Shown: piece by piece, positions 9,460-56,172 of the stretch
How the letters are laid out: the number at the start of each line of letters is the position of its first letter
Position numbering within the stretch: position 1 is the stretch's first letter
DNA from: Hormiphora californensis
Taxonomy: Eukaryota > Animalia > Ctenophora
Direction of reading: 5' to 3'
DNA: 64,000 nt
Assembly (NCBI GenBank): GCA_020137815.1
Contig: CM035362.1
Location: forward strand, 5,146,001-5,210,000
Translations under genes and position numbers: made by a program
The notes under the pieces: generated by a model
What the model saw: the letters and a program-made list of their open reading frames with translations, nothing else
The model's database searches: none
Told to the model about the DNA's origin: nothing

Positions 9460-9617
9460 TAACTTGATATTTTCAAACTTCCTTTCTTTTTTCTGACAGA
9501 CCCATATTTAACTTTACTTTGTACAGATTGTATATGTAGCTTACTTATTTTATTGAAACAACATAATCAAGAACTTTCTAAGTATGCGTCACCTTTATGA
9601 ACGAGGCTTGTTTTTAA

Positions 9618-14557: not shown

Positions 14558-14862
14558 TTTAAACGACACTGGAAGTTCTAATTCTGTCATGGAGATGTTT
14601 TGGAACAGATCAGTGCAGGAACGCGCGAAGACACGCTTGTGTGGTGTCAGTTGGTTTCTGGCGCGGGCTGCCTCTTGCCAACGCGCGCAGCATCGTCTTG
14701 GAGTTGGGAATGGGAGTGGAAACCGGAACCGGAACAACCACTTCTAAAAAAGTCATTTGGTGAAATTGAGAGTTTATCCCATGTAACCGGTTAACTCAGT
14801 GTCGAAAAATAAACATATGAATGATTTTTACAGCAGTTCCACATTGTAAACCGAAACGGTGA

Positions 14863-25380: not shown

Positions 25381-25679
25381 TTTGTGTTTTTTGTGTGTTG
25401 AACATAAACGTAGTCAAACGCAATGAGAAAGTGACTGATGATATGGTATATTATATCTAATAGTAGGGGCACTTAGACCAGCACGTGGTTAAAGTCTAGT
25501 ACCAAACTTTTTGCACATTGTCATAACTCCTTTATGTCACCACCAATCACGTGCATGATCTAAGCGCTCCTACTATAACAATCTGGTTAGTTTTTATCTA
25601 TAAATTATCTTCTCAACACTGAACACCGCTGTTTGAACATAAAGATAAGACTTAACGCCTATTTTTATCCCATCAAGGT

Positions 25680-27072
25680 ATGGCAAAGAGAAATCTTAGA
25701 TCTGGTACTGGAGAGTCAGCAGAAATCGTCTCCAAATCGGCTAGAAAGTTTGTAATTCCTACCCTCCTGAAAACAGAACAAATTGATGTGGAAAGCAATA
25801 TCAAGCCTGAAATTCTCACTTCCTGCACCGACTCCAAGAGTTCCAATATTACAATTTCCTCAGATAACATTTTAACATTCACATGCGGTGGCTGTGGTGC
25901 ATCAGGTATTCACCATTTGGGTTTAGAGTACCGACTAGTTAGAACAGCCACGTTGGTGGAGGTTGGTACTCAAACTGGTGATGAGTCAAGTTCCTCTGAG
26001 ATTCCTGTCGAGACGTCCAATGCTCGATCCTTGGATGACCAAAACAATCCTGTCTCAGTTCCTACTTCTTCTGCTGCTTCACCAATTGTTGTGTCTTCTG
26101 ATAATGGTAAGCGTCAGACTACTTTCACTTTCATCTTGTTTAATGTTTTTTATTCTTTAATTGTGTTTATTTCTTGTTTTGTACAAACGCGGGGCACGCG
26201 AATAACAGTCTAACTTGGCAATTTATTTCATGTAAAACAGGATCAGGAGGCGATAAATCCTAATGTGTTATTTGAAGTTCTAACCCTCCTTTTTATTTTC
26301 AGAAGATACTTCAGAAGATGAGGATTGCTCTGACTCAGATGAAGAGGAATCTCCGTTGTTCAATGGGACAGATGAGCAGAGTTTCCAGTGTAAAATCAAA
26401 GTGTGTTCGGTTTTGAAACCAACGGAGGAGGACTTGTTCGAGCACGTTAGAATTGATCACTCAGACAGAAAATACCGGTGCAATGTTTGTCCAATGGCTT
26501 TTAAGCAACCCAGCGCCCTAACTCAACACAGCCTGATCCACAGTGGAGATAAACCTTACCAATGTGACGTGTGTGGAATGAAGTTTTTACTAAAACCTAA
26601 TTTGGTAAAACATCAGTTATTGATCCATAACGTGAAAAAGACAGTTGCTTGTCGATTTAAAAGCTGTGGATTAGGATTCCCCAACAACAACGAGTTATAT
26701 GACCACATCAGAACTGCACATCCGAGAGAGAAATTCCAGTGCGATAAGTGCCCTTACTCTTTTAAGTTTCAATCCCAACTAATCCGTCATAATCGAATCC
26801 ATACTGGAATTAAACCATACGAATGTGAGGTGTGTGGTAAAAGATTTTCTCAGTTAGGTCATTATAAATCACATTTTAATTTACATACTGGAGAGCGTCC
26901 ATTCAAATGTGATGTCTGTGGTAAAGCATTTTCTCGAGCAGAGAATATGAAGACGCATATGAGGACACACACTGGCGAGAAACCTTTTTCTTGTTCTCAC
27001 TGTGGGAAATATTTTACTAGAAAATCACACCGAAAAGTTCATGAGGTTTTCTGTTCTGCGAGCCAGAATTAA
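25680..27072 (+). CDS. C2H2 zinc-finger protein, copy 1 (exons 25680-26106, 26303-27072)
   Basis: Phase-1 GT-AG intron joins the N-terminal domain (CGGCG, VGTQT) to an acidic linker and tandem C2H2 fingers with TGEKPF linkers. Confidence 0.9.
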
Positions 27073-27282
27073 TAATTGAGAGTTTAGAAAGCTGTGTGCT
27101 GTGTGTAGCAAGGGTATTAATACTGATATGTTTCTAAGATAAATTTGCTTGATTCTTGGCGGTCCACTGTTATGCGATTATAATGATATTTTTATTCTTT
27201 AAATTTTGATGTTCGTTTCTTTGGTGACCACTATCTTTACTGATTGATAAAATCCTAAAATCTCCCTTTCTCCCATCAAGGT

Positions 27283-29051
27283 ATGGCTAAAAGAAAACGT
27301 GGGAGTCGTTCTTCAGGAAGTCCAACTAAAAAGGTCACAAAATCAGCTGAAAAGTTTGATATTCCTGCCCTCCTGAAAACGGAACAAATTGAGGTGGAAA
27401 GCAACATCAAACCTGAAATTCTCACACCCTGCACCGACTCCAAGAGTTCCAATATTACAATTTCCGCAGATAACATTTTAACATTCACATGCGGTGGGTG
27501 TGGTGCATCAGGTATTCACCATTTGGGTTTAGAGTACCGGCTAGTTAAAACAGGAATATTAGTGGAAGTTGGTACTCAAACTGGAGATGAGTCAAGTTCC
27601 TCTGAGATTCCTGTCGAGAAGTCCAATGCTCGATCCTTGGATGACCAAAACAATCCTGTCTCTGGTCCTGCTTCTTCTGCTGCTTCTACAATTGTTGTGT
27701 CTTCCGATAATGGTAAGCGTCAGACTACTTTTACTTTCAACTTGTTTAATGTTTTTTATTCTTTAATTGTGTTTATTTCTTGTTTTGTACAAACGCGGGG
27801 CGCACGAATAACAGTCTAACTTGGCAATTTATTTCATGTAAAACAGGATCAGGAACCGATAAATCCTAATGTGTTATTGGAAGTTTTAACCCTCCTTTTT
27901 TATTTTCAGAAGATACTTCAGAAGATGAGGATTGCTCTGACTCAGATGAAGAGGAATCTCCGGGTGAATCTGGTGGTGAGGAAGAGGTTAGCAGCTCTGA
28001 AGATGACATGATGTTGGGTCTTACAGATGAGACACTCAGTGATTCCAGTGAAGAAGAAGAAGAAGAAGAAGAAGGAGTTAGGCAGAGTTCTTCCCAGAAA
28101 CCCAGCCCTACAAAACGCCCTGTTTGCCATTCACAAATGCTAGCTCGTCACTCCCTTGTTAACGAGCCGGCTACTTCCAATCTTTCTTCTCGTCGGAAAT
28201 CTGCGAGGAATATGCAAACTAAAACCAAACTAATCCTGGACCCTTCTTTTGCAACTGATACCCATCCAAATCGGGCCAATTCTAATCGAGCGTCCACTAG
28301 TGGCAAATATAGGAAGCAGTCGTCCAAAATTTCCAACGAAACTGATGAGCAGAGTCCGTGTTTTCATTGTAAAATCAGAGGGTGTTCAGTCGTAAAATCA
28401 TCGGAGAAGGACTTGTTCGAGCACGTTCGAAATGATCACTCAGACAGAAAATACCGGTGCGATGTTTGTCCAATGGCTTTTAAGCAACCCAGCGCCCTAA
28501 CTCAACACAGCCTGATCCACAGTGGAGATAAACCTTACCAATGTGACGTGTGTGGAATGAAGTTTTTACTAAAACCTAATTTGGTAAAACATCAGTTATT
28601 GATCCATAACGTGAAAAAGACAGTTGCTTGTCGATTTAAAAGCTGTGGATTAGGATTCCCCAACAACAACGAGTTATATGACCACATCAGAACTGCACAT
28701 CCGAGAGAGAAATTCCAGTGCGATAAGTGCCCTTACTCTTTTAAGTTTCAATCCCACCTAATCCGTCATAATCGAATCCATACTGGAATTAAACCCTACG
28801 AATGTGAGGTTTGTAAGAAGAAATTTGCTACTAACAGTTCCTATAAAGAACATCTTAATTTACATACTGGAGAGCGTCCATTCAAATGTGATGTCTGTGG
28901 TAAAGCATTTTCTCGAGTAGATAGTTTAAGGGTGCATATGAGAATCCACACTGGTGATCAACCATTTGCATGTTCTCAATGTGGAAAACAATTTACTCAT
29001 AATAATAGAAGACAACTCCATGAGGCTTCCTGTTCTGCGAGCAAGAATTGA
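27283..29051 (+). CDS. C2H2 zinc-finger protein, copy 2 (exons 27283-27712, 27910-29051)
   Basis: Same intron and phase as copy 1; intact frame; C2H2 array. Confidence 0.9.
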
Positions 29052-29261
29052 GAATTGAGAGTTTAGAAAGTTGGTTGCTGTGTGTAGCAAGGGTATTTAT
29101 ACTGATATGTTTCTAAGATAAATTTGCTTGATTCTTGGCGGTCCACTGTTATGCGATTATAATGATATTTTTATTCTTTAAATTTTGATGTTCGTTTCTT
29201 TGGTGACCACTATCTTTACTGATTGATAAAATCCTAAAATCTCCCTTTCTCCCATCAAGGT

Positions 29262-29995
29262 ATGGCTAAAAGAAAACGTGGGAGTCGTTCTTCAGGAAGT
29301 CCAACTAAAAAGGTCACAAAATCAGCTGAAAAGTTTGATATTCCTGCCCTCCTTAAAACGGAACAAATTGAGGTGGAAAGCAACATCAAACCTGAAATTC
29401 TCTCACCCTGCACCGACTCCAAGAGTTCCAATATTAAACTAACCTTACTCAGCACAACCTGGTGCACAGTGGAGATAAACCTCACCAATGTGACGAGTGT
29501 GGTATGAAATTTACTCAAAAAGTTAGTTTAACGAAACATCGGCATTCAATTCATAACGAGAACACTATAGTTTTTTGCCGACACCAAAATTGTGGAGTGA
29601 GATTACCCAAAAGCGAGTTATATGAGCACATCAGGTCTGCACATCCGAAAGAGAAGTTGCAGTGTGATAAGTGTCCTTACTCTTTTAAGTTTCAGTCAGA
29701 ACTGAGCCGTCATAATCGAAGCCATACTGGAATTAAACCATATGAATGTAAGGTTTGTGGTAAAACGTTTTCTCAGTCCAGAAATTATACTCGGCATTTA
29801 AAGGTGCATACTCGAGAGCGTCCATTTAAATGTGATGTCTGTGGTAAGACCTTTTCTGAAGCAGGTGATTTGAGGAGGCATATGAGGACACATACTGGTG
29901 AGAAACCATTTGCTTGTTCTAACTGTGGGAAATATTTTACCCAAAATCATAACAGAAAAGCTCATGAGGTTTCCTGTTTTCCGAAAAACAATTAA
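29262..29995 (+). pseudogene. C2H2 ZF copy 3, internally deleted and out of frame
   Basis: Exon 1 breaks off at ~29436 and runs directly into finger sequence in another frame. Confidence 0.75.
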
Positions 29996-30204
29996 CAGTT
30001 GATAATTTTGAAGGTTGTGTGGCATGCCGCATGTGTACCAACTGCAGTATTTGAAGTCTTTTTTGAGATAATAAATAAAATGTATGTTTCAATTCTTGGC
30101 GGTCCTAATTTTATATTAACAGTTTTATCGATTATATAATGCTATTTTGTATCTCAAAAATTACTGATTAAAAATCTGAAAACCTCTTTTTCTCCCATCA
30201 AGGT

Positions 30205-31921
30205 ATGGCGAAAAGAAAACGTCGTTCTTCAGGAAGTCCAACTGAAAACGTCACAAAATCAGCTGAAGAGTTTGAAATTCCTGCCCTTTTGAAATCAGAA
30301 CAAATTGAGGTGGAAAGCAACATCAAACCTGAAATTCTCTCACCCTGCACCGACTCCAAGAGTTCCAATATTACAATTTCCTCAGATAACATTTTAACAT
30401 TCACATGCGGTGGGTGTGGGGTATCAGGTAATCACCATTTGGGTTTCGAGTACCGGCTAGTTAAAACTGCAATGTTATTGGAAGTTGGTACTCAAACTGG
30501 AGATGAGTCAAGTTCCTCTGAGATTCCTGTCGAGACGTCCAATACTCGATCCTTGGATGACCAAAACAATCCCGTCTCTGGTCCTGCTGCTTCTGCTGCT
30601 TCTACAATTGTTGTGTCTTCTGATAATGGTAAGCGTCAGACTAGTGATAGTCTGAGACTACTTTCACTTTCATCTTGTTTTTATTCTTTAATTGTGTTTA
30701 TTTCATGTAAAACAGGATTAGGAGCTGATAAATCCTAATGTGTTATTGGAAGTTCTAACCCTCCTTTTTATTTTCAGAAGATACTTCAGATGATGAGGAT
30801 TGCTCTGACTCTGATGAAGAGGAATCTCCGTGTGAATCTGGTGAGGAAGAAGTTAGCAGCTCTGAAGATGACATGATGTTGGGTCTTACAGATGCGACAC
30901 TGAGTGATTCCAGTGAAGAAGAAGAAGAAGGAGTTCAGCAGAGTTCTTCCCAGAAACCCACCTCTCCAAAACTCCCTGTACCCCAGTCACAAATGCTAGC
31001 TCGTCACTCCCTTGTTAACGAGCCGGCTACTTCCAATCTTTCTTCTTGTCGGAAATCTGTGAGGAATATGCAAACTAAAACCAAACTAATCCTGGACCCT
31101 TCTCTTGCAACTGAAACCCATCCAAATCGGGCCAATTCTAATCGAGCGTCCATTAGTGGCAAATATAGGAAGCAGCGTCGTCCAAAATTTCCAACGAAAC
31201 TGATGAGCAGAACAATCTAGCAAACGAGCAATGTTTCCGGTGTAAATTCAGAGGGTGCCCGGTTTTCAAACTAACGGAGCAGGACTTGTTCGAGCACGTT
31301 AGAATTGATCATGCAGATAGGAAATATCGGTGTAAAGTTTGTCCTATGGCTTTCATAATTCCTAGTTTATTAACTAAGCACAGGCGCCTGGTGCACAGGG
31401 TAGATAAACCTCACCAATGTGACGATTGCGGAAAGAGGTTTAAAATTAAATCTAACTTAGATAGCCATCAGTTGATTCATAACGAGGAAAGGGAAGTGTC
31501 TTGCTTTTATAAATATTGTGGAGTGATAGTACCTAGGAACGCGATGAACGAGCACATCAGAACTTCTCACGCGAAGGAGAAGTTCCAGTGTGATATTTGT
31601 CCAATGAGTTTCAAGACTTTTCAGAGTTTAACTTTACATGAACAGAAACATACTGGAATTAAACCATACGAATGTGAGCTGTGCGGGAAGACGTTTTCTC
31701 AATGTAGTAATTATAAAAGACATTACATTTCGCATACTGGAAAGCTTCCATTTGAATGTGATGTCTGTGGTAAATCATTTTCCCGATCTGATACTATGAG
31801 GATCCATATGAGGACACACACTGGCAAGAAACCATTTGCATGTTCTCACTGTGGGAAAACTTTTGCCCAGAATTCAAACAGAAAATTTCATGAGATTTCC
31901 TGTTCTGCGAGCCAGAATTAA
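30205..31921 (+). pseudogene. C2H2 ZF copy 4 (exons 30205-30628, 30778-31921) with a frameshift
   Basis: 2-bp insertion near 31175 versus copy 2 (AAGCAGCGTCG vs AAGCAGTCG) gives a stop at 31220; fingers continue in another frame. Could be an assembly error. Confidence 0.7.
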
Positions 31922-32116
31922 CAATTGAGAGTTTTGAAAGTTGTGTGCTGTGTGTAGCAACTGGTATTTATACTGATTATATGTTTCTAAGATAAATTTG
32001 CTTGATTCTTGGCGGTCCACTGTTAAGCGATTATAATGATATTTTTATTCTTCAAATTCTTATGGTTCTTACTTTGGTGACCACTATCTTAACAATTCCC
32101 TTTCTCCCATCAAGGT

Positions 32117-34643
32117 ATGGCGAAAAGAAAACGTGAGAGTCCAACTAAAAATGTCACAAAATCAGCTGAACAGTTTGATATTCCTGCTCTCCTGAAAACG
32201 GAACAAATTGAGGTGGAAAGCAACATAAAACCTGAAATTCTCACACCCTTTACCGACTCCAAGAGTTCCAATATTACAATTTCTGCGGATAACATTTTAA
32301 CATTCACATGCGGTGGTTGTGGGGCATCAGGTATTCACCATTTGGGTTTAGAGTACCGACTAGTTAGAACAGCCACATTGGTGGAGGTTGGTACTCAAAC
32401 TGGTGATGAGTCAAGTTCCTCTGAGATTCCTGTCGAGACGTCCAATGGCATCTCTGCTATCTCGGCCCCGGTCCCGGTTATCCCAGAGAGCTCAGCAACC
32501 AACAACCCGGTAAGTGTGCAAATAATTAGGTTTTTACTTCGTGTTCTCTTTCCTTCACTTTTATAATCTTAGCTCTCCTAGACCGGCCCATCAAGTTGTC
32601 CTCTTTCTTTCTCTAAATCTCTAACCAATACACCCTCTCTATACCTTCTTATTATATTAGTAAATAAATATCTTCCTAGGCTGAAGGAAGATCGCCATCT
32701 GTACAGGCATTTGTTGATGACCTAAACAAAAAATTGGCGGCCTGCAAGGATGTACAGTCAGTAACTTCGTGTACCGATATCAGGATGGCGGTAAGTTTGT
32801 CATCAGGAACCGACCGAATCAGGTAATACTGGTCCCTGATTGGCTGATAACCAGTCACGTGACCTTAATAACGAGCTCTGATTGGTTGTTTACTTGTTTC
32901 GGTCGGTTTCTGTTTGTCATCATGAGTAGTAGGTAAAATAGCCCCGCTGTACCACCTAAAAGTGTGGCACACCATATTTGGGCATATGACGTCATCACAT
33001 ACCCAAATATGGTCATATGACGTCACATCACGTGACTTATCACGTGCTTTTATCATATCATGTGACATGATCACGTGTTTATCATGTGACATGGTCACAC
33101 GGTCACGTGACTTTAGTCATCGACTGACCAAATATGGTCATGTATGATGTCACCACATGATTTTCCTCGGTTGGCTGTCAGCTGTGCACCAGGTGTAGTA
33201 ATTGATCTGTGTATCAAGTTCGAGAGTGTGAGAGTGAGAGAGAGAGAGAGAGAAAAAGAGAGAGGGATAGATATTCAACATACTATGAAATAATCAAACA
33301 TGCTCAATTCAAATCACCTAATCCTTCTCTTCTCCTATCCTCTTAGCAACCGAAACATCCATGATGACCGAAAGAAAGACTCTGAATATCGAACAGCTTC
33401 ACCGGAAAGCCTTGTCAGCGGCGAGCAAAAATATAACCAAAAACTCGCAGAAATCATGGAAAGAAACTAAATCTTCCCAAAAAGAGGATCAAAACAGGTC
33501 ATATGATAAAATACCCGTTGGGGAAAATGATGGTGTATCTCTCTCTCTCTCGTTCAGCGACTGTGAATGTTCATTAATGATTAATGATCATTTTCAGATA
33601 ATTTTGGAGTGGAGACAAACACACAACTCTTCAAAAGAAACAAAAATTAATCGAAACTTTTCATATAACTTTACGAAAATGCAAAACCATCGATGTAGGA
33701 AAATCTCTCGAATCATCTTCTGAAAACTCAAAAAGCTTGTTCATATTATCACAAATTACAAACTGTATTTCACTCAAATTGACAAATCTCACTTTGAAAT
33801 AAGAAGGGTTTACAAATTCATAATGATTGTACCCCAATTTTTGCTCGAATGGGAACATAGCGAAAAATCTCGAGTCATGTTCATTTATTTGTCTATAGTC
33901 CGTGTATGCATGTGGTACAATGTTTGAATAGATATATCCAAGCTTTGCATGCCTCGGAAAGTCTTCTATTTTACCCGAAATTTTTGGTGGTAAAAGGTGG
34001 AATGGACTGTTTTCCATGTAAGTCTTAAAAAACCTCAAAACACTATTTTCACTCGTTGCAAATCCTTTAGTGGAATGACGATACTCCAGAGTACATACAT
34101 GTGTTGTTTCATCTGCAAAGTACTCTGGGATAGGCCAATGATCAGAACCATTCACCAGATTTTCCTTTTCTTCAGAGCTTATCGCCTTTTGCATTGCTAG
34201 TAGTAATTGTGCTCCGTTTCGATAATACCCAGGTGGAATTGAGTAATCTCTGGATTCATAATCCTGTTCCCTTTCGGATACCAAAAAGTGATTATTACCC
34301 TTGGTTACGTTAAATGTTGATGAAGGAGCGTGACTTATACTTTTTACAGCTACTTCATAGTCTCCATTCAAGTCTAATGCATTCTCCGATCGAAAGATAA
34401 ATTTACTGGGATTTTGTTTATAACTAGTAGCGATAAGGTACATGATTATAACTACTACTTGCATACGATTACATCCACGTTTCTTTTGAATTGAGTTTTA
34501 TGTGCTTAAATACTAATTACTCCACCATATTTGAACATATGAGGTCTACACATATCCAAATATGAACATATGACGTCACATGATCACGTGGTCATGTAAC
34601 TATGGTTCATATTTAGACATATGACGTCACCACATGGCATATT

Positions 34644-34732
<89 letters not shown>

Positions 34733-37700
34733 CAGAGACAGAGACAGAGACAGAGACAGAGACAGAGAAATAGAGAGACATCATACGAGATTCCGTGTGG
34801 GAGCGGTTCGTTTAGTGGACTGAGAGGGGGAGAGAGAGATAGAGAGATAGAGAGAGAGAGTTCCTTCTATTATATTATCATATTAATTATTGTATCCCTT
34901 TACATCTGTTCATTATCTTTTACTCACTCGACTTGATGTTGCTCTAGTTCTCTGTCTGCTGACCAAATGGATCCAATAACCCTTTTGATTTTGCTGGTTA
35001 TCTTCTTCATGCATCCTTACTTGACTAGACAGAAATCTGTGAAGTGTACAGTATGCGGAAAGACCATGAGGAAGGATACTCTTGGACGACACATGAAGAC
35101 TCATAATCCAACTGAAGAATGTCGTTTTTGTAAGAAACAAATTCGGGAGGATCGGTTGACTCACCATGAGACACTATGTCAAGATAAAGTCGACGAGAGT
35201 GTGTGTGATAGGGTTACAGGTGTTCATGAGCATATGGATGATTCAGTGGAAACACTCCCACAGTGCAGCTCAGTTTCTGGATTTTTCCGATCCTACGAGT
35301 TAAATGTGGAGAAAAGCATTGACTACGATAAAATAATTGAGGACACTTGTAGTGCTGTAAAGCACATCGTCACAGAGTCTGTCAAGAGACACCCGATAAA
35401 GGCACAGATCTCTATCTCTCTTTCCTTTTACAAAGATGTGGATGGTCAGAGAAATGGGTCAGAAAAAGTATTCCGATCACAGTGTGAACCCATAATAGCT
35501 GGTGACAATGTTGACGAGTTTCTCAAACGGGCAGCTGTGATCATTCGACATGGAATTGACGTATACGAACGATTTGGAAGTGGGTGGATTTTTGACAATC
35601 ACCAGTGTTCCAAACTTGAGCTGGCCAAATACTCACCACTATCGGGGTGTGGTTTTGTCACGCTCCCAAAGAAGCTGAGAGATATGCGATCGGTCTTAAA
35701 CATCCGTTCAACTGATAATCGTTGCTTCCTCTATTGTCTTTTGGCTCACCTATTCCCGGTAAAAAGTCATCCAGATAGGTATACAAAGTATCTGGACCAT
35801 GTACACAAAGTTGAAATGGGAGGTGTTAAGTTTCCTGTGAAACTAAGGGAAATTCGAAAGGTGGAACATCAAAACAATCTTTCTATCTCTGTATTTCAGT
35901 GGTCTAACGATGGTGGAGGTTCTGTTATACCCTTGAAACATGGTAGTGGAAAGGGTACCCAGATCGATCTCCTTGTTATCGAGGGTGGAAATTCATCACA
36001 CTACCTGTTGATAAAGAACTTCAACAACTTCATGAGACATCGAACTAAATACCACCACACCATGTTCTATTGTCGAAAATGCCTCCATGGGTTTGTCAAC
36101 AAGAGGAAACAACGAGATCATTCTACTCTATGCCTCCAGGGAATCAACCAGATTACCGTTATGCCTCAGCCGGGTGTTATCAGTTTTACAGAAAAACACA
36201 AGGGTGAAAAGAAGGCTTTCGTGATCTACGTAGACTTTGAGTGTGTTTTACAGAGAGTTGACTCTTCTGATTCCAACCGCTCGGTCACCAAGACGGAGAA
36301 ACACCTTCCATGTAGTTTCTCCATCGTCTCGTCTTCTGTTTTCGAGAACTACAACGAGGAGGAAATTGTCTTCTCGGATCCCGACCCAGCCAAAGTGACC
36401 CACCAGTTTGTCAGCGAGTTGCTGCGTATCTATACTACAATGATGGAATGTCAATCAACTAATGACTTTCCTATACACATGAGTGATCACGATGAGCAGG
36501 TGTTTAAGAATTCAATAAACTGTCACATTTGTGGTAAGGAACTTATGTGGGGATCGACAAAAAACTATCCTGTCAGGGATCATGACCACCGTCAGGAGCA
36601 TAACAACTTCCGGGGGGCTGCATGTAACATCTGCAACAGAAACTATTACAATCGTAGTCGGAAGGTTCCTGTTTTGGCTCACAATCTCAAAGGCTACGAT
36701 TTAAACCTTTTCCTGAGAGATCTAATACAATTTGTGTATAAGGAAGAGGAAGAGTTTGATGAAGTGGAGGGTCTCGACGAGGAGGATGAGCTCGGTGATG
36801 TGGACTTGGTTAATCCAAAGAAAAAGGACAGCATGTCCATCATCCCTGAAAACCTTGAAAAGATAAAGGCAATATTCACAAAAAAGTTCATTTTTCTTGA
36901 TTCTCTTGCCTTTCTATCCGCTCCTCTGACAACATTGGTTAAGAATCTCAAATCATCTGGACTGGAGAAGTTTCACCGCCTTCGTAAGAAATTCCCAGAC
37001 CATTTAGATATATTGACTGATAAGGGTGTCTATTGCTATGAGCATGTTCAAAAGTTTGAGGATTTGGAATTACCACATCTCCCTGCTAAGGATGCGTTCT
37101 ATAGTCATCTCACTGAGTCAAATATCACAGACGAGGATTACGTGCGAGCACAGACTGTTTTCAGAGAAATGAATTGCACCTCGCTCCTGGATTACATGAG
37201 AATCTATGTGTTGGTTGACACCCTCCAACTAGCTGACATATTTGAGAATTTTAGGGAGTTGTGTCTGACGTGGTATCAATTGGATCCAGTACACTACCTT
37301 AGTCTACCAGCATTCGGATGGTCAGCCATGCTCAAGATGACAGATGTCAACCTCGAAAAGATTACTGATATTACTCAATATACTTTCATTGAAGAAAGTT
37401 TACGAGGTGGGGTAACCACTGTGAATTGTCGTTACCACAAGGCCAACAATCCCTACCTGGATAACTATGACCCTCAAGTAGACACAACCTACATTCATTA
37501 CATCGACTGTAATAACCTGTGAGTGAGATATGATCTGAATTTACCTATACCTTATCCCAAACATTATCACATTTTTTATTACTTCATCGGTATAATTTAC
37601 CAACATCAACACTTGTATTTTCAGGTATGGTGATTCTATGAATCAGCCTCTACCAACTGGTGATTTCAAATGGTTGAAAAAAGAGGAGATTAAGGCGTTT

Positions 37701-40700
37701 GATGTCAACTCCACAAGAACAGATGGTGATAAATGCTATATGCTGGAAGTAGATTTGGATTACCCTGATGACCTACACGACAAACACACTGATTTTCCTC
37801 TTGCTGTGGAGGGGAAATCGATTGAGAAAGAGCAATTGTCAGAATTTAATAAAAATGCATTGGAGAGAAATGGGGATAGATTTATCAGGACAAGGAAACT
37901 CATCCCTGATTTGAAACCAAAACATAGGTAAGTTGGATGTGACATGAATTCTAAAATTGTAATATTGAAGTTTGAACAAGTTTGAACACCACTGGGTGAG
38001 AATATAATGACCTCTCTTTTCCTTGTTTTGTCAGGTACACCTGTTCACTGAAGAACCTACAGCTTTTTTTAAAGCACGGATTGGTCCTCATCATGATTCA
38101 CAGAATACTCTCCTGCACACAACAGGACTTCATGAGTCAATATATCCAATTCAACTCCAAAAAACGTCAACAATCAACCAATAACTTCGAGAAGGACTTT
38201 TTCAAGGTAAAGATCAACAAATACATTGAAGTTTTTTCTAATCTCTTAAAATTAATTCAATATTAACGTAACTTTTTTCTTTTCAGTTGATGAATAACTG
38301 TGTGTACGGAAAATTTATCGAATCTGTTCGGAAGCACACCGATGTTAAAGTTGCAACAAACGAGAGAACTGCCAACAAATTAACGTCAAAACCCCAGTAC
38401 ATGGGATACCATAGACTTGACGATGACATGGTCTTAGTACAGTGCTGTAAACAAAAAATTGTCCTTGATAGACCTATTGCATGCGGTTTTATGGTGTTAG
38501 AGAATGCTAAATTCACCATGTCCAATATGTGGTACAATGTGCTAAAACCACTTTATGGAGACAAAATAACCCTACTACTCAGTGACACTGATAGCTTCAT
38601 ATACTCGGTTAAAACTGAGGATGGCTATCGAGATTTGTTTAACATGCGGGAGATTATGGATTTAGCAGACTATCATCCGGACACACCCTTGGGATGTTTC
38701 AAGGATACAAGAAACAAGAAGGTTCCCGGAAAATTCAGCGATGAACTGCCTACTGAAATTATAGAGGAGGTAATCAGTTTAAAACCGAAGATGTATTCAA
38801 TCGCTACGAAAAAGCTGACATGCAACACCATACACACAGATGCAAATCACCAGTGTACCTCGAGTTGTACAATTGGTCACTCGGCACGAGCAAAGGGGGT
38901 TTCTAAGACTGCTCAGAGGAAAATTACCCACGATGACTACAAAAAGACATTGTTCGAGGGTATCACAACTACAGCTTCTAGCAGAGCGATCAGGTCATTG
39001 AACAATAATCTTTTTACTGTTAATGTTACAAAGCGAGCTCTGTCATCATATGATGATAAAAAGTATGTCTTGTCTAACGGTGTGAACACCCTTAGTTATG
39101 GACATTTTAGATTGAGATGATTTACTTTGTGTGACTTCCTTTTTTTCTTTTTCTTTTTTGGGAGAAAATGAAACAAATCATGTGTTTGTGTTGAAAGTTT
39201 AATGCTCAAGTGTTCTTAATATTCAATATTTTTCCCGAAAATGTAAAACTATGACAGTGGGGAAATCATTTTTAACTTTATTTTGAAAATTCAAAGATTG
39301 TTTCATGTGTATAGAGAGAGAGAGGGAGAGAGAGAGAGAGTGAGAGAGTGAGAGAGAGGGAGAGAGAGAGTTCTGAATTACAATGGAGTACCTTGGATAT
39401 AGACATAGAATATAAGTGTCAAAGTAGCACATTTTGACCAGGGAGGATAGCTGGGCCCCCTAAGGCGTCGAAACTGCAGGATTATCTTGTAGTGCGGATG
39501 TCGTGGGTTCGAATCCCACCGATGCCATCCCCGGCTGTTCTCCCCTTTTACTATAAAAAGCAAATAAAGATGAGATATAGTTTACTTTGAGAAATGTCTC
39601 CAGTAGCTTACATCACATCCGTGCTTCTTGTCAACTCATTCATTGTTCAGTTTCAGAATCCAAACTGTACACACTTTCTTTCGTTGTCCGGCAGTGATGA
39701 AACACGTCTAGAGTTACACCGAGCTGAGGATCTTATACAACTCGTAATTCACAACACTAGCTACAACCCTACTAAAATATAGTTCGACGCGACGCAACGC
39801 GCGATCGATGAACGATCGATAAACGATCGATAAACGATCGATATCGATCGTTTATCGATCGTTCATCGATCGCGCGTCGCGTCGAACTATATTTTAGTAG
39901 GGAATGTACAAATGTACACATTTATCTCAAATGGTACATTCTCGTTTGTATGGCCGTCAAAGTCAATCGATGGTGTTTCAATGAAACTTGTGCACAATAT
40001 TGGAATCTTTCATCAGCTAACATTTGACAGACTGACAATCCACTGTGATGTTATACATTTTCAAGGAGGTGATTACCAGGAGTATAACACAGAAGAGGAT
40101 GTGTATCAATGCAATCATACCTCTTCGAATAATATTATTCTCTATTGTCTGCCAGTGATTGTAATTTTCACTCTCATTATCGGGGGCAATATGCCAGATT
40201 TTGTGAAATTCTTCATTGCAAAATACAATCTAGTACTTAACGGACAACATACCGTGGCGCAACAGGAGACCACTATATAAGACCAAAATAACAATTTCAT
40301 AATTTAACAACTATGAATACATATTCTTTGTTAGATTATTTTGCTGGAGGATCGAATTCTGACTCGCGTTTATTCTGTTCAAAATGTACTATTCTCAAGC
40401 GATGTTGGAGACATAATGTAGTTGAACTACCACATCACAAATATCAACCTTTGAAGTGGGAAAGGATACCTCTGCGAAAACTCAAAAATATTCGCAGAAC
40501 GACCATATAAAAAGACCCTCTATGAATATAATACTCATTTCCAACTATGGTTGCTATTGATAACACAGAGTTTTATGATGACGTTTGGGGAAAAATTGGC
40601 TCCCTCATTAGATCATACGGAAACGTTCTTAGCTATGAGGCTACTTATAGCTTAACACACGATAGTTTTCGCTTTCCTGTCACATTACCAGACCAAATAG

Positions 40701-43700
40701 CCCCTATCATCGCTGGTATTGACAGAGGATACAATGGAAATCCAGTACGAATCGAGATTGGATATTTCTGGGAAAATGAAGGTGATAATCGACGAGGATT
40801 GGGCACGCACCCTCACCTTTTGACTGTCGCAGATATTGTTCAAAAGGACATTGTTCGAATGATTAAACCTAGTCGAACTATAAGTGTTATTTCCCTAGCA
40901 TTTATCCGTGTGTTAGTATTTAAATTAGATGAAGTTGATGAAGATTATGATATTTGTGACTGTGAAATGTGTAGTATTTAAGACATGTTTCTTTCTGTAC
41001 TTTTATTTCTGAACTCTTGTGTTTTTTAAATTTGTCCCATGGGTCTGTGCTGGTCGACGAAACCATCTTTTGATGAGGATGCATGGGAAAGTCTCTCACC
41101 TACAAAAATACCTTTTGCAGATGAATTTATTGAAAAACAGGAGGTTATAACACGAGTTAGAGAAGCGAACCAAAAAATGCTTGCTTGGGAAATACCAGAG
41201 GAAAAATGTCAACATGTGAAGTTTCAACATGATTTTCATCATTTTTACCCTCCTGTATATGATCAATATTCACCAATTAGTGTAAAAAGCTTTGATCCAG
41301 CTGATATTGAGTGTGATTGTGGGCGTGATTGTGGACATAGTTAGTAAGACGACTAAAACACTCTTGAATTATGAAAGACAATATTTGTAAACAAACATAT
41401 CATTCTGTTTTAAATTCCCAGAAAAGGGTTGTAGTGTCTGTTTCAAACTTTCTATCGACAATCTCTCTACAAAATATAACGCATAATATCCACACGCATT
41501 GCTAGTTAACTGTTGGAGGATCTTATTATTATAAATCACACGTCCTTGCACTATACCCTTCATTGTATCCACAAACTCATGCGTGAATGTAGTCTCATTA
41601 CGATTCAATTTGCGACCATAGCTATCCATGAAGTAGGTGATTCCACCTTTGTATACCACAGCAATCCAATGCTCCCCTGGTTTGCTAGAAGGCGAAGTGT
41701 TCACTATGATACTCCAGTCACCATCGGGTAAATCCGACACCTCATCATAAGCAAATGCCCCTTTAAAGTGATTTGTTTTGATATCATCAAAGGTTTTTGT
41801 AGTTAGAGATTTCATTTAGGGATTAGTCACATTATAGAGCTTATATAGCGTAGAGTTGACGATTTTTGTCGACTTCAATGATGCGATCATAGTAGGCGAG
41901 TGTAAAGAGAACTTTGTCAGTTGTGGATTGTTTTAGCAACTCCAGCACAATCCTCACATTCCCACTCTTGTTCAAGTTCATTCCATGTTGGTTTTGTGTT
42001 TTATCCTGTGTCAAATCAAAACCTAAAGCTGGGTAAACACGGAAATGATGCATTATGAAGTTGTCTTTTCGGGCACCGGTTGCCTCACCAAGAGCAACCA
42101 CCATATTTGTCTCATCGTGATCTGTCATCTTCAACATTTGTGGGTAGTACTCTACACCATTTACATATAATTGCACGCTCTTCACCATGTGTAATGAAAA
42201 AGGATTCTTGTTACGGTTTCTTCCAAAAGCTGAACGATCTTGGATACCAACATAGAAAAAATAGGGTAGAGTACCATTGAACAAGTTGTCAATTGTAACG
42301 ACAGATGTTGCAATAGAATGAATTGACATTACTTTTTTGTCGGCATGATAAATGGCGTTTCTTTTTGCCAATTTTTGCTCTAACAAATTGATCACATCAT
42401 CTCTTGGTTGCTGGTAAGTACATCTAAGGAATACCCTATCCAGTTTAACTTTGGAAGTGTCAGTTGTAGCAGACATGAGGATAGTTTCATCATAGTTTTT
42501 TGTGAGTTGCACTTGAAATTCCAAATCGGAGGGAAGAAGAGTTGCCTGGTTGAAAAGCGTGACATTTAGTTTAGAACAGAGGAACATGGTCTCTCCTCTA
42601 GCAATTCTCTGAGCTCGTATCCGACCATTCTTATTCTTTGGTTCTATTTTAGTATCTTCGGGATAATATGTTGTGTCTTCACTTTCTGTTTTATCACCTA
42701 CATCATCAAGTAGCAGCCCCTCTTTTCGGAGTAAATAAGGTCGTTCACCACGGCCATGATGTATACAATCATCCCAAAATTTGAACATAGCATAGGAGTT
42801 ATCATATGATTGAGTTAGGGATACACCTCCAGATGAAACTTCTACATTTCTCCACAAAATAGCACCAAGGTGAGGTGCGGTGGATACATTCACTCTATCA
42901 GCAGGGACAGTACCATCACCCGATAGTACCCTCATTTCTGTGTAAACATCAATCGAGTCCAACATATGTCGTTCTAAACCGGGAACTGTAAACGAAATAG
43001 TGTCTGAGCTATCGATTGAGTTGTTTGGATATACATCAATTTGCTTTGTCGCGATAATGCCAGTTTGTGTTGACATGGGACTCCATAGATGAAGTTGGGT
43101 GGGAAGACCCTCGGAAGACTTGACGTATTTTGTCATGATACGTTTTTTGTCAAAAGAATATGATTGTTACCTTATATACCCTATGAGAGTGCATCACGTT
43201 TTCGTTTTCCAATCTTTTTAGTGAGTTTGTTAGTACCAGTCTCAATTTGTCTCGCAGCATATTGACCAGCAGCATTTACGAGCTCGTTTCCAGCAGTTTG
43301 GAGACCAGGTTTTGCAATTTCGAAACCTTTTTGGAGGAAGGTTTTACCTATTGGAGCTACGCTACGAAATAATTTTTTGAGAAATCCTCCAATTCCGCCC
43401 CCTCTCTGATTGTGATAGACACCGAGATCTGCGTCGAGAGCCCTATCAAAATCAGCTGTTGCTCGAGGAGATGGATAATACAGTTGACGCATGGTTTTGT
43501 GATTGATTGGACTGGTTTTGAATTGTATTTATAGTACACTGGTAACACATTTTTTAACGTTTCTGAATGTTTAAGATAATAACAGTGGGTAGGATGGCAA
43601 ATTTGAATAATTTTCCCTCAATATCTGTAAATCGAAAGTGTAGATCTGTAAAAGCATGCACAGACAAGGGTCGATACATGGGATTAATTACTTCATGGTA

Positions 43701-46700
43701 ATTGTAACCCTCTTTAGACTTTATGGGGAAACATGCCAACAAATGGGATTGTTGTTGATTTATCGACATATTCGCCACTACAGAAGAATACAAAAATGCA
43801 ACTTCACTCTGGTTCTCCAAAACATAATTATCAATATTTAGCTGATTAAGATATACAAGCTTAGATTCATCATCGTAATTACAGAAACCAAATATTCTCA
43901 TTAAAGTGTCATGTTCACCTCCAGTTATCAACTTAGTGGGTTTTGGTAGTTTTAGAACCACCTTACCAGGGTCAGGTACTTTGAAACTCGAGTCTATTTC
44001 ATTTCTTAAGCATACATCATGCATCGCCTTGACAATCTCACATGTGTTAGCATAGAAGCCAGGAACAATATTCAACTCTTCTGTAGCATCCACTTCAAAA
44101 AGTCGAAATGTATTATTTGATTCGGTGATATTGTAGGTTGGACCGTGGAATATCCCTTTTACTGCGATTTCAAAGTTGTCAGATAAGCTGATAGAGTCGA
44201 GAAAGTTGGACGAGAAACTACTTCGTCTTTGATTTTCGCTTGTTACGATTATATCCATTATTGATCAGAGCCTTTGTTGATTTTAAATGTTTGGTACTGC
44301 GGCGCTTTTTACTCTTTCCCAGCTTTGATTTCAACACAACTCCCAAGGTCCTTTTTATAGGGAGAATTTCAGTTGGAATGTCAAGAGATTTTTTCACTGA
44401 CCCGTCTTCAGCTATCAAACGATATCTCATAGTAGTGCAGGTAGGATAGGGAGTATAGTTTGTAGAATTGAACGAATTATGGATCCACCCTTTTGATTTG
44501 CCTTTATAGGAGCACGGGCATGTTTTCTTATGAAACTCCGATGACGCTTTAGTTTTTTAATTTCTCGTTCGCCCATACTTAAACGGCCATCCAAAATACT
44601 CTTGAAAAGGAGTTTCAGAGCTTTACGAAGGGAAGGTGTGTTTTCCAAAACAATCTGAATTTGAGCATTGTTCTTTCTGGAAAGTAATTTCATTACTGAA
44701 TGATGTCTTTTCAGTATCACAGGAATATGTTTGGGCATGATGTAAAGTAGTCTGTAGTTACAAGCAATTCTTCTGGAACTCTTGGATGAAACGAAAGTAA
44801 CACAAACTGGTATGCTCCGATATATTTATAGGCTTCCATGAGACGCCAATTGTCTTTTCCGAGTATTTGTCGTGCTAGAGTATTAATCTGTGAGAGGTTC
44901 CTCTTGTTTTTGAAAAGAATCATATATTGAGTATTCTGACTAATGAGACGATAATTCTCATTATTGAGAAACACACTGTGGGTAACGAAAATTGTTGTTG
45001 TCTGTTTGTGGTGTGACCCTGCTATAAAGTGTTGGGCCATTTCCTTGTTTAGTTCTAACATCAAGTCGTCTAGAATCAGCAGCTTTGGCCCGTCAAACTG
45101 ATCTATCACATCTAGTTTGAGTCCGTGTACAAATTCAATCTTTTGTTTGTTCTCACTGTTCCATGTGTCCATGAACGGTTGGTGCGCTGCATAGAGGTAG
45201 TATATCTTTTTTGGCATTGGTGAAATTAACTCCTCTCTCACAATTTTCATGATTGTGGTGGTTTTACCGCTCCCACTAGCACCAATAACAAGGATATTCG
45301 AGTTTGCAAGTAACCGCATGATAAGTTTGTAAAATAACACAATCAATCTACTCTTTTATATATCAAACATATCAGACTTGTCTACCCATCTATTCTCTGA
45401 TTCGGGATAGTCTTTGAAACTAACAAAATATTGTTCATGACCACGATGTTTTCTTGTCTTTAAAACTTTATCGATTGCATAAATTTGATTATCTACATCA
45501 ACTTTCTGGACCTCTGCCTCGTAGAAACTTCCCTGTAGTATCTCACCTGAAGAATCTTGTAATCGATATGTAACAGGATTTGTATCCCTCACCTCATCAA
45601 CAGTGAAAACTTCATAACTCCAAGTTTGTTCATACCCTTTCTGGAAGATATCTTTCATCCTAGAAACACGTACGGTGTCTCCAACTTGGAGCTTTGGGCG
45701 AGGTCGTGGGGGTTCGTTGGGGTATAAATTTTCACGCACCTCGTTTTCATTACTCTTGTTCACTTGGTTAGGCTTCATTTTGATAGCACGATGATAACTG
45801 TTGTTGTAGTTTCGAATCAGGTTTTCCAAAATGTCAACCCACCGATGGGATCCTTGGCTGGTGAAGGCACGATATAATTTTGATTTTATTGTTCGATTAC
45901 ATCTTTCAATAATAGCACATTTGCGATCTGAATAAACTGTGTAGGTGTCAATATTAAGTCTGTTAAAAAGATCAATAAGTACTTTATTCTTAAACTCTCC
46001 ACCACCATCAGTCTCAAACTTTTGTGGTTTCAATCGAGTGAGTAATGATTCCAACTCGTCATATACACTCTTTGCAGATTTATTCTTTAATTTGAAGGCC
46101 CATAAACGTTTGCTAAATGTGTCAATAACCATCAATATCCATTTGAATCCATTGTTTTGTTTGGAGTATGCACTCATATCAACTAAGTCGGCTTGAAAGT
46201 GGTAGTTTATCCCCCTGGAATAGATGCGTCTGTAGCGTCTTGGTTTGCGAACAGGTTTATGAAGTGTATACGGATCGCTTTTCAATAGAGCCTTTTGAAC
46301 TACAGATCTTTTCAGTCCTTTAATTTTTTCTTTTGTTGATCGATAAAAACTTTCTTTTCCTGCGAACGCCCCATGTGACACAGGATTTATGTATAACTTT
46401 TGGATCTTGTCTTTAGGTTTTTGTTTCCTTCGACTTTTCCTTTTTCTCATCATGTCGATAAACGTATGAATTATACATCGTGGGTTATGTTTTCTTCCTT
46501 TTATAACAGGAGCAACAAAACGTGTTTGGAAGTTTAGGAAATGATACTTATTAATTATTCCATGAATCTGATTGGTTAATAGGTAAGACACTATAAAAAC
46601 ATTAAAAACCTGACTCTACACGTCACTTCCGTAATGTTGTACTTTGAAAATGTTTGGATAGCTGCACTGACTGATAGCATGGTTCGGAGAGTGTGTAATA

Positions 46701-49700
46701 TTTCGGAGAAATTATGTCCTGCACATAAAGCTGGCCTGAAATCTCCAATTTTACACCATTGTCAACAAGACTCACTGCTGGATAAAATCGGAAAGCACTT
46801 CCATACTGCTCAAGGGGAACTCTTGAGAAATCTTGAGAAGGAATACGAGGTGATATCTTCAAAGTTACCCAAGTCAGATAGCCCCGAGGATGATAAAAAG
46901 TGTTACATTAGTTGTGGAAGGAGTTTTCTGTTAACTGTTACACCAGAAGCCTTGTATTACGGGCGATATATGAGTGAAGACTCTGACAAGTTGATTTACA
47001 CCAAAACTTCAAAAAAGAGGAAGTTGAAATGATCAATTATTATAAATATCTTCATTTTTCTAATACCTTGCAATGAATCGTGTTTTTCCCTTCTTCTTTT
47101 TTGAATACAAAAGTTCATTATAAGGTCATTATAAAGATCATTATAAAATCTCTTTTTCTCTCACTTTCTTTCTCACGTCCTCTTAACTAGTACCACATAA
47201 GATAGAGAGAGAGAGAGAGGGAGAGAGAGAAGGAAAAAAAATCTCTCTCTCTTTTTCTCTCTGTCTCGCTCTCATTCCACGTTCAGCACTCTTTTACAAT
47301 CACACAACCATGAGTCACGTGACTCATCATAAATAGTTAGGATCGTTCCTGGAGTTGGTTGTTCATTATAAGTTCTGTGTTATAAAGATCATTATAAAGT
47401 CTCTCTCTCTCTCTCTCTATCCCTCTTTCTCACGTCCTCTCTCTCTCTCTTACTCGTTCTCATTCTACGTTAGACAGACATCATACGAGATTCCGTGTGG
47501 GAGCGGTTCGTTTAGTGGATTGAGAGGGGGAGAGAGAGATAGAGAGATAGAGTAAAAGTGTATTGTCATTAGGGAGAATCGTTCCTGGAGTTGACTGATT
47601 CCATGAGTCACGTGTTCAACACTTTAGGTATTATATAACCAACCATCTAGCTGACCTCAACTAAACTTCTCTTACCCATCCTAACCTCTGTGCCGAACAT
47701 TACTGCCGAACATGCCTGTTGTGTCTCTGATTGTTTACCTCATCGAAGAGCATCAGAGGACGAAAAGCTACCGGTAAGTCATGTCTTGAATGTTCTCATC
47801 AGCTTTTTTCATAGTGAGATTTACAGCTTTCGACTTGCTTTTTTTTTTCTTTTTTTTTTTTCCGCGCTCGGTTGAATACCGTAGGTATTCACCTGGATGT
47901 CTTTTGCAAAAAGGCATAGCTGTTAAGAATTCGAAAATTATACACAGTGTTGCTTGTAGTGGAAATACGATTTCTGTCAGAAACATGTTGTTCCCTATTT
48001 CGGTGTTGATGATCGTCAGACCCTAGTGTTGAATCGATACTGTATTCTCACTACAAGCACCCCTGATACTAGAGAGATGTCACAGCCACAAAACTAACTG
48101 TTTTTTTTTATCCCTTTCAGAAAGATTTTTACGGATCAAGGAATCTACATATGTTTTGACAAGTCTATCAAGATAGAGACTAACAAGAAGGTAGTTTGTG
48201 TGGTAAAGAAAGCGAAGCCCCCCCAGAGATCCAATATCATTTTGGTAAGAATCAACTCACCCTAGAACAGCTTTCTACTTCTTCTAATTGTTGAGTTCAC
48301 CATACACCTCATTTTGACTGTTTTTGAGTCCTACCCCTTATGAGTTTGGATATGGTCATCGTCACACCCCCTATCCGTGACTTGCCAGAACCCGAATTTG
48401 ACAACTATTTTTTTCCCCTCAGTGCGTTATTCTGTCCAAAGATGTTACTGGGGAAAGTAGTGACGACGACGATGAAGGTAGTGACGAAGGTGCGCTTTCA
48501 AACGAGACACTTGATCCAGATGCAGACTGCGATTCAACGAAGCGAGATGACAGTGCCGGCAAACGCCGAAAGATCTTGATTGAGTGAGACTGTGGGTGTT
48601 AATTGTTAACTGTGGGTGTGTTCAGGCATGTAGGGGAAGTTTTGAAAGTGGTGGGGCCAAATTTTTTTTTGGTCACGTGATATGACATACACTGACTTTT
48701 CTATTGAAAATTCGATTAGATCGGGCGAAGCGATAGCGGAGTCCGAGAAAATTTTTCGGTTTTTAGGGCAAAAAGTCATAGTTTTTGTCTAATCATGAAA
48801 AGAACTGGGGCCATTTCCTGAAAAGTGCTGGGGTCATGGCGTACCCTGCCTCCCCTTCCCCTACATGCGTGGGTGTGTTTCACAAACAACAAAAAAAAAA
48901 AATAAATAAAATAAAAAAAATAAAAATAAACTCTTGCATGAGTCTGTTTAGAGATATTTGTGGGATATGTGAGGTCACCTATTATAGGGGACCAGGCGAT
49001 TAGGACCAGGGGATGTGCAGCGTCACTCAATGATACAAATTATATAGCTGTAGTGTTTAGTACCCGTTTACTGATGATAACGATCGTGTTATTACCTGTA
49101 GGATGACAGTGACAACATTGGCTGTCACTAGTAGTGTTCTGTACAGTATTCTCTCTCCCAGTAATTTACACCGTGGTGAACCTTGTTGTTTAACTGTCTA
49201 TGTACATGTGCACTGGTATCCATCACTCATTTCATAGGGTGGGGAGGTGGTTGGAGGCCCGGTGGGGGTCCTGATGGTAGCTGGATGTCTGCCAGCGATA
49301 CAGCTGGGGGTGGAAAGTTGCCTGGGTGGAAGTTATGTGGTTGGTGCTGGAAATGAACATTTTCAGTCCGTCCGGAAAGATATGGATTTTGGTACGATCC
49401 AATGTTTGGTGTGGAACGGACACTATCTGGTGTGGAAACCCGTGAGGAGTCACGGGGAATGTGCTCTTTGCTGAACACATTGATCTCTGATTCCGATGTA
49501 GCTGTCCGTGGTGGTGTTTGATGGGGAGACTGACTTCGGGGTACAAACTGTGCTACATCGACATTTAACAGACTAGAAGTGATTCTTTCCTCTCCGTACC
49601 GACTAGAAGTGATTCTTTCCTCTTCGTACCCCTCATCACTCTTAGATCTCTTGTAGGATGGTGATGAGATGGATAAGGTTTGGGAAACGTTGGCTGGGGA

Positions 49701-50013
49701 GACACCATCATTGCTGGCCGTGGAGAGAGAGAGAGAGAGATACACCATCATTTTCCCCAACGGGTATTTTATCATATGACCTGTTTTGATCCTCTTTTTG
49801 GGAAGATTTAGTTTCTTTCCATGATTTCTGCGAGTTTTTGGTTATATTTTTGCTCGCCGCTGACAAGGCTTTCCGGTGAAGCTGTTCGATATTCAGAGTC
49901 TTTCTTTCGGCCATCATGGATGTTTCGGTTGCTAAGAGGATAGGAGAAGAGAAGGATTAGGTGATTTGAATTGAGCATGTTTGATTATTTCATAGTATGT
50001 TGAATATCTATCC

Positions 50014-50044
<31 letters not shown>

Positions 50045-54983: not shown

Positions 54984-56072
54984 ATGGCAAAAAGTAAACC
55001 TGACCGACCAAGAGCTGGTAGTTCAGAAAGTCCCGCCACGACAGCCGATGGAAAATTTGAAATTCCTCCCCTTCTGAAAACTGAACCAATATACGTGGAA
55101 ACTCCCTGTCCAGTATTCAAGATTCAAACAATACCAGAGGTAGATGAGAACGATATTTTATTCAAATGTGATGGATGTGGAAAACAAGGGAGTTGCCTTC
55201 TGGAATCAGGGTATAGACTTGTTAAAACCGCCATTTTGGTAGAAGTTGGAACTCAAACTGGGTGCGATGAAATTACAGTGGATCCTGTAAAGATGGAAAT
55301 TACTGATCCTCTTTACCACGACTCAATTCCTAGCACATCAGCTGCTTTACCACTAATTGGTGAGTTTTGGAATGTCTTTTTTTCATTGTGTTTTTTAGGT
55401 AGATATCCTCAATGTTAAATTCTAAATTATCTTATTTTTTCAGATGATTTGAATACAAGTTTGTGCTCAGATGAAGGAGAATCTGGTGGTGAGGAAGAGG
55501 TAAGCAGCTCTGAAGATGACATGATGTTGGGACTAAAAGAGGAGACACTCGGAGATTATAGTGAAATAGAAGAAGGAGTTCTGCAGAGTTCTTCCCGGAT
55601 TCCCACCTCTGATCCAAATATCCCTATTTCCCAGTCACAAATTCTACCTCGACAAACTGACCATGACCAACCGACTACTTCCTATCCTGATTTTTGTCAG
55701 ACATCTGCCAGGAATAACGCTGATCCAATAAATAAGCCTCTACTTTCTTTCCTGTATGGGTCTCCATATAATCAATCAGGTCCGGAAGAGTCGTATTCTC
55801 CTCAAACTGTGAGCAATCGAACCTCGCTGGCAATAGATTCTCCTGAAGAAAGTGGGCCGAACGCTCGTTACCACTGTCAAATTATGCGGTGCTCAGTTGT
55901 TACATCATCGGAGAAGGACCTGTTCGAGCATGTTAGAATTGCTCACTCAGATAGGAAATACCGTTGCGATTCTTGTCCAAAGGCGTTTATGTATCTAAGT
56001 GAGCTTACTAAGCACAGCATGATGGTCCATAGTGGAGATAAACCTTTCCAATGTGACGAGTGTGGATGAATT
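54984..56072 (+). CDS. Divergent C2H2 ZF copy 6 (exons ~54984-55359, 55444 to the gap), truncated by an N gap
   Basis: Same N-terminal domain (FKCDGCG, YRLVKT, VEVGTQT), acidic linker and first fingers. Confidence 0.75.
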
Positions 56073-56172
56073 NNNNNNNNNNNNNNNNNNNNNNNNNNNN
56101 NNNNNNNNNNNNNNNNNNNNNNNNNNNNNNNNNNNNNNNNNNNNNNNNNNNNNNNNNNNNNNNNNNNNNNNN
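56073..56172. other. Assembly gap (100 N)
   Basis: Run of n. Confidence 1.

Follow-up and report, generated by a model that had tools for sequence, protein, structure and literature searches.

Three segments in the polymerase gene of an intact ctenophore Maverick are very likely spliceosomal introns

Introduction

Is a Maverick whose replication gene is broken in three places a fossil, or an intact element whose polymerase is expressed through host splicing? The question is raised by a stretch of 64,000 nucleotides (nt) from the ctenophore Hormiphora californensis (GenBank assembly GCA_020137815.1, contig CM035362.1, forward-strand positions 5,146,001 to 5,210,000). We refer to this whole stretch as the window and number all positions from its first letter. 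The window holds an intact 17.4-kb Maverick/Polinton element at 32925–50355, whose gene for a protein-primed family B DNA polymerase, pPolB, is interrupted by three short segments between 37519 and 38286. Judging by their sequence, these segments are very likely spliceosomal introns that an intact animal Maverick has gained in its polymerase gene, our greatest confidence attaching to the spliceosomal step taken alone.

Papers on Mavericks and Polintons state or assume that the core genes are free of introns, and their pipelines are built on that. The available text of Barreat and Katzourakis (2021, PMC8097293) describes the genes of intact vertebrate Mavericks as lacking introns, and that of Widen et al. 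(10.1101/2022.07.12.499685) describes nematode Mavericks with intronless core genes and introns in cargo genes only. In the accessible part of another study, endogenous viruses were assumed to be intron-free and genes were called with a prokaryotic gene finder (PMC10120064). A nematode survey, in the portion available, required a pPolB open reading frame (ORF) of at least 900 amino acids (aa) (Jeong et al., 10.1101/2023.08.22.554363). Five further sources, in their available sections, deal with self-splicing introns or homing endonucleases only (PMC11296320, PMC12220804, PMC8502044, 10.64898/2026.10.13.758929 and 10.1101/2022.07.28.501842). Our literature search turned up no account of spliceosomal introns in the pPolB of an animal Maverick; subscription journals, Repbase entries and supplements lay outside its scope, so a prior mention is possible.

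Results

pPolB lies on the forward strand and was examined exon by exon in domain and homology searches. Exon 1 (34967–37518) encodes a C2H2 finger, an endonuclease VII-like insert, exonuclease motifs I–III and the first half of polymerase motif A. Intron 1 (37519–37624; 106 nt, phase 2, GTGAGT..TTTCAG) splits motif A (YIDCNN-x-YG) and is followed by exon 2 (37625–37927; 303 nt). Intron 2 (37928–38034; 107 nt, phase 2, GTAAGT..TGTCAG) falls between motifs A and B, exon 3 (38035–38206; 172 nt) comes after it, and intron 3 (38207–38286; 80 nt, phase 0, GTAAAG..TTTCAG) sits in motif B. Exon 4 (38287–39120) supplies the remainder of motif B, the catalytic motif C (SDTDS) and the stop codon. Together the exons sum to 2552 + 303 + 172 + 834 = 3861 nt, or 1286 codons plus a stop, with no internal stop in any exon. 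The coordinates, lengths and GT–AG ends are all as given in the original prediction, which had been made from the letters alone. The exonuclease and polymerase motifs of protein-primed family B polymerases were located in the product, and its homologues carry PF03175. The separate window exons gave no PF03175 match themselves, and a search of PDB sequences with the polymerase profile returned zinc-finger and endonuclease VII matches only.

All three segments run from GT to AG, with a GTRA-type donor and a pyrimidine-rich acceptor, and each proposed splice pair is the sole residue-neutral G[TC]..AG pair within ±30 nt. By base composition, the chance that three correctly placed insertions would all have GT..AG ends is about 5e-8. 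The GC content of the segments is 0.30, 0.34 and 0.21, compared with 0.39–0.42 in the exons; no segment has a length divisible by 3, and each contains stops in all three frames. Retention of intron 1, 2 or 3 brings a stop after 1, 1 or 19 codons, in every case upstream of SDTDS, so that a full-length polymerase would need host splicing. A dependence on host splicing had been claimed for this gene, and the claim is strengthened both by this truncation and by the manner in which the segments appear to behave as introns under selection, described below. Self-splicing introns of group I or group II were considered and rejected: an Rfam search of 32900–50400 returned 0 matches, and 80–107 nt is too short for either class.

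The first 14 codons of the gene (34967–35008) form a hydrophobic extension not shared by any of the nine homologue N-termini with which it was compared. Translation may actually begin at Met15 (35009), about where the homologues begin, which makes a protein of 1272 aa as likely as one of 1286 aa; alternatively, the gene may have an unseen leader exon upstream. Hence the 1286-aa frame first proposed holds up as a stop-free frame that rebuilds motifs A and B, and its N-terminus has an equally likely competitor.

Homologous polymerases read straight across the three joints. Searching for longer proteins with exon 4 returned 85 matches, and in 51/51 of the top homologues, which were examined for exon collinearity, the exons abut with gaps of 1, 1 and 0 residues in the subject; where one residue is left over, it is the codon split by a phase-2 intron. 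Among 366 fetched proteins, redundant cluster members included, the expected gap was present in 225/225, 172/172 and 248/250 of those spanning the first, second and third junctions. We made the same comparison in DNA with 48 metagenome loci, counting those with one aligned segment across a site, and found 24/24, 25/25 and 32/32 loci to be gap-free at sites 1, 2 and 3. Two of the loci, L001 and L002, encode the close-clade members P0013 and P0006. Three ctenophores, Pleurobrachia bachei, Mnemiopsis leidyi and Bolinopsis microptera, are the sources of the named close homologues, and scans of IMG/VR with exon 4 and with the alignment found 0 relatives.

Two trees place the window polymerase among these relatives: one of the exon-4 region with 71 rows, built as a quick IQ-TREE run, and one of exon 1 with 33 rows, built with FastTree. 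In both it falls deep inside a ctenophore-associated clade, alongside gene models from P. bachei and the protein P0368, whose ORF of 1256 aa lies on an ENA contig of 5.7 kb. The subclade that joins the window to P0368 has a FastTree local support of 100. With the window polymerase so placed, the simplest reading is that the introns were gained in the window lineage.

Candidate introns also occur in two of the 48 metagenome loci, both encoding distant pPolBs. One lies at 4054–4172 of L021 (119 nt, phase 0) and the other at 3545–3662 of L026 (118 nt, phase 2); both have GT–AG ends, they fall a few codons apart, and they occupy sites other than those of the window, a sign of independent gains. 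Closer to the window, the P. bachei gene model P0187 (276 aa) is 90% identical to the exon-4 ORF and coextensive with it, which suggests the same break in the P. bachei gene, annotated without its upstream exons. As a separate observation, the fragments P0197 and P0365 end like read-through of a splice signal, in motif B a few codons from site 3.

Eight sequencing runs were compared with the window, comprising DNA (X1, X5, X7, X11 and X14) and RNA (X12, X13 and X15). Four runs, each from a different study and together representing two organisms, contain the same three segments. In X1, from organism A and possibly the window's own source, a single contig covers 37400–38420 and is identical except for an extra T at 38272. 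X5, also from organism A and from a different study, has the introns with a few variants. In organism B, X7 carries all three introns on one 1651-nt contig over 37436–39090, and X11, again from a different study, holds two variants each of introns 1 and 2. No intron-free joint is listed in the five DNA runs, whose contigs drop rare variants, and X14 (organism C) gave no matching contig, which is no proof of absence. The extra T, found in both X1 and X5, falls in a T-run of intron 3 and probably reflects a homopolymer error in the window assembly.

Differences among these copies separate the introns from the exons. Within 37400–38420, 12/12 indel rows are intronic though introns make up 29% of that stretch, a bias with a rough probability of about 6e-4 if the rows are counted as about six events. 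In organism B (X7 and X11), only the first 4 and the last 10 bases of intron 3 are retained, the 66 bases between them being replaced by 68 others. Among the substitutions listed, which are 40 of 76 and 40 of 438 rows, those in exons lean towards synonymous change, with synonymous/nonsynonymous counts of 23/8 in X11, 26/14 in X7 and 2/1 in X5, and include 0 stops. Divergence from organism B is also patchy along the gene, at about 5% over exons 2–3 and introns 1–2 and about 13–14% over exon 4, a pattern suggestive of recombination between lineages of the element close to intron 3.

The element that carries the gene has ends AGTAGT..ACTACT and is flanked by a perfect 6-bp target-site duplication (TSD), ATCATG, at 32919–32924 and 50356–50361. 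Its terminal inverted repeats (TIRs), the left at 32925–33551 on the forward strand and the right at 49727–50355 on the reverse, are 99.4% identical over a 629-column match. Near-identical TIRs and unbroken ORFs point to recent insertion of the element.

On the reverse strand, the major capsid protein is encoded by a single ORF of 431 aa (41841–43136) that is full-length and collinear end to end with its homologues. A double jelly-roll fold is predicted for its product with high confidence: the alignment-based model has a predicted local distance difference test score (pLDDT) of 95.5, and its best Foldseek matches are the PBCV-1, iridovirus and Sputnik capsids (E ~1e-15). A PDB sequence search with the capsid gave no match. 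The integrase, of retroviral type with a chromodomain, is likewise a single reverse-strand ORF (45356–46453; PF00665, E 1.5e-10). The same strand carries a P-loop ATPase ORF, probably the packaging ATPase (44717–45319), whose match lies below the curated cut-off, and an adenain-like protease ORF (41369–41815) with a weak match to Pfam PF00770 (Peptidase_C5), also below cut-off. Judging by its position, the reverse-strand ORF of 234 aa at 43554–44258 is the probable minor capsid protein; a 267-aa ORF at 33661–34464, on the same strand and 27% identical to it, is presumably a minor capsid paralogue.

A second gene of the element also appears to be spliced. This candidate accessory gene of 116 codons, on the forward strand at 47712–48587, has exons at 47712–47773, 48121–48244 and 48423–48587, separated by candidate GT–AG introns of 347 nt (47774–48120) and 178 nt (48245–48422), and its frame is open over the three exons. 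The candidate product has an acidic tail and a basic C-terminal patch; for exons 2 and 3 there was no match to a PHROG family or to any of the 48 metagenome loci. An 82-nt motif upstream of pPolB (34771–34852, forward strand) recurs at 97.6% identity at 47471–47552, upstream of the accessory gene. pPolB and the accessory gene have their strand, this upstream element and the apparent presence of introns in common, and the capsid, ATPase, protease and integrase genes are single ORFs on the opposite strand. The earlier remark that the capsid, integrase and ATPase genes are intronless is borne out for the capsid and the integrase, both single ORFs, and with the accessory gene pPolB is apparently not the only spliced gene of the element. 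Also upstream of pPolB, TGACGTCA and CACGTG motifs cluster at 34571–34622, as they do in the TIRs. Between pPolB and the small ORFs downstream of it lies a near-perfect palindrome of 136 nt with 11-nt tandem repeats (39767–39902).

The element is flanked by tandem, spliced C2H2 zinc-finger genes (25658–32566 and 55476–56070), apparently the host insertion locus, and these host genes have candidate introns of the same style as those of pPolB. Elsewhere the window contains a 1.57-kb palindrome of 97.7% (5997–7564), a 32-nt satellite array with a 1.6-kb inverted arm pair (9612–14563), a reverse transcriptase ORF of a separate retroelement (PF00078; 56498–57703, forward strand) and a 100-N gap (56073–56172).

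Discussion

We consider it likely that the three segments are ordinary introns, that they were gained from an intron-free ancestor, and that the host splices them each time the polymerase is expressed. Host RNA polymerase II would transcribe pPolB in the nucleus, and constitutive splicing would follow. Each intron would have become fixed as a tolerated insertion over a long residence in host nuclei, its splice signals would now be kept by selection because the polymerase is essential, and the introns would have been carried along with the element at its recent insertion. The data call for no switch.

Several points weigh against this account. The RNA contigs (two in X12, five in X13, none in X15) cover only 35312–36404 and reach no junction, so that we infer splicing from sequence and selection; the contigs of X12 and X13 are short, of depth 2–3 and all in exon 1, and are not evidence of expression or habitat. 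A branch-point-like YTRAY is found in intron 3 only. In another comparison of copies 5/11 indel rows were intronic, the other 6 being three compensating 1-nt pairs in exon 1, and splice-site changes are possible beyond the substitutions listed. Nor is the gain placed exactly: the closest full-length relatives, P0001 and P0031, are gene models only, and some short ENA contigs could be transcripts. In addition, P0231, a fragment on a distant branch, resembles read-through of an acceptor at site 1, which could mean a parallel gain or an older intron.

The introns may have another origin that would be compatible with their present splicing, namely host introners, as in the maverick-like elements of dinoflagellates. 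Introners are present in full-length maverick-like proviruses, according to the accessible portion of a recent preprint (bioRxiv 10.1101/2025.03.18.643946). The three window introns are clustered within 770 nt, which would suit such a source, and intron 2 has the 5-nt direct repeat AGGTA at both boundaries. This repeat fits a proto-splice site or a target duplication, AG|GT being also the usual proto-splice context, and introns 1 and 3 do not fit. Against introners, the three introns bear no relation to one another (133–300 of 300 shuffles reach as high a score), lack terminal inverted repeats, show boundary repeats of 2, 5 and 2 nt, and find no match above 16 nt either in the window or among the 48 loci. 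An introner origin is, in our judgement, unlikely. Tandem duplication of flanking exon as the source gave no significant similarity (25–291 of 300 shuffles as high).

The introns might instead be functional for the element, gating the polymerase through regulated retention or skipping, boosting expression, or marking the transcript as self against silencing. All three lie upstream of the catalytic motif, where retention would truncate the polymerase, and they have persisted while adjoining exon DNA diverged by up to 14%. The best hint of regulation is the strand and upstream motif shared by the two spliced genes, with the virion and integrase genes as single ORFs on the other strand. For silencing, introns counter HUSH in human cells, as the available text of one study reports (PMC8770142), but nothing ties HUSH to the present host. 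The intron interiors, however, show no conservation and no shared sequence among the three, and full-length intron-free relatives are abundant in the same clade. Persistence, moreover, is expected regardless, because exact intron loss is rare. A role in regulation or reduced silencing, as first put forward for this gene, thus finds no direct support and seems to us distinctly improbable. Comparably doubtful is a broader scheme in which this Maverick lineage runs an early programme that depends on splicing and a late one that is free of introns. Replication of the element would in that case be gated by the host spliceosome, and repeated, independent gain of polymerase introns across Maverick lineages would be adaptive and not the product of drift, extensions that we regard with the same scepticism.

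An ancestral presence of the introns in the polymerase clade, followed by loss in most relatives (for instance by way of reverse-transcribed mRNA), is very unlikely. The possible acceptor in P0231, and the knowledge of P0001 and P0031 as gene models only, would suit an ancestral origin. Yet ancestry would require many independent losses across both trees, the three sites are free of gaps in distant loci, and L021 and L026 have their candidate introns at other positions. It is scarcely credible that the segments are insertions that inactivated a decaying copy, or products of faulty assembly, with GT–AG ends by coincidence: most Maverick loci are degraded and Genewise can read large insertions as introns (as set out in the available text of PMC8097293), and the junctions have no RNA coverage, but the 3861 nt of exon hold no stop or frameshift, the TIRs are nearly identical and the TSD perfect, the segments recur across runs, studies and organisms, exon changes are biased towards synonymous ones, indels within 37400–38420 are confined to the segments, and three canonical end pairs would hardly arise by chance.

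Ordinary, host-spliced introns in an intact element would matter first for surveys. The longest ORF of the window pPolB is 851 aa, short of the 900-aa minimum stated in the available portion of Jeong et al. (10.1101/2023.08.22.554363), so that ORF-based surveys would miss the element. The original prediction had anticipated this, and the P0187 model, which consists of the last-exon ORF only, points the same way. An intact, recently inserted element with a split polymerase implies that surveys undercount intact elements and may score such elements as fossils. If the introns are obligate, the replication gene would also have to be expressed in the nucleus, where the host spliceosome is; this speaks against reliance of the lineage, in the manner of a virophage, on the cytoplasmic factory of a giant virus. 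With close intron-free relatives at hand, intron gain in a mobile genome that resembles a DNA virus can be studied here as a dated test case.

In size, TIRs, 6-bp TSD, pPolB, rve integrase, ATPase, protease and double jelly-roll capsid, the window element is like other animal Mavericks and Polintons. Those elements are described with intronless core genes, as far as the available texts go, whereas the core polymerase here has three introns. The difference holds even within its own clade. The intron-free pPolBs P0013 (locus L001), P0006 (L002) and P0368 are 47–66% identical to the window polymerase in the last exon, with the same domain order and collinear junctions, but unlike the window they keep a continuous reading frame over the three sites, as seen at the DNA level for L001, L002 and L004. 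Among related nuclear DNA viruses, adenovirus has a protein-primed polymerase, encoded in E2B, whose mRNA is made by host splicing. There, however, splicing adds a short leader exon and leaves the catalytic region uninterrupted, unlike in the window pPolB. The introner-bearing maverick-polinton-like elements of dinoflagellates, in the accessible account of Gozashti and Corbett-Detig, have spliceosomal-type introns in full-length Maverick-like elements, as in the window. Dinoflagellate introners form multi-copy families and were mostly acquired after integration, by the same account (10.1101/2025.03.18.643946). The three window introns, by contrast, are unrelated to one another, belong to no repeat family in the window or the 48 loci, and appear to have been inherited with the element over two organisms, in an animal host.

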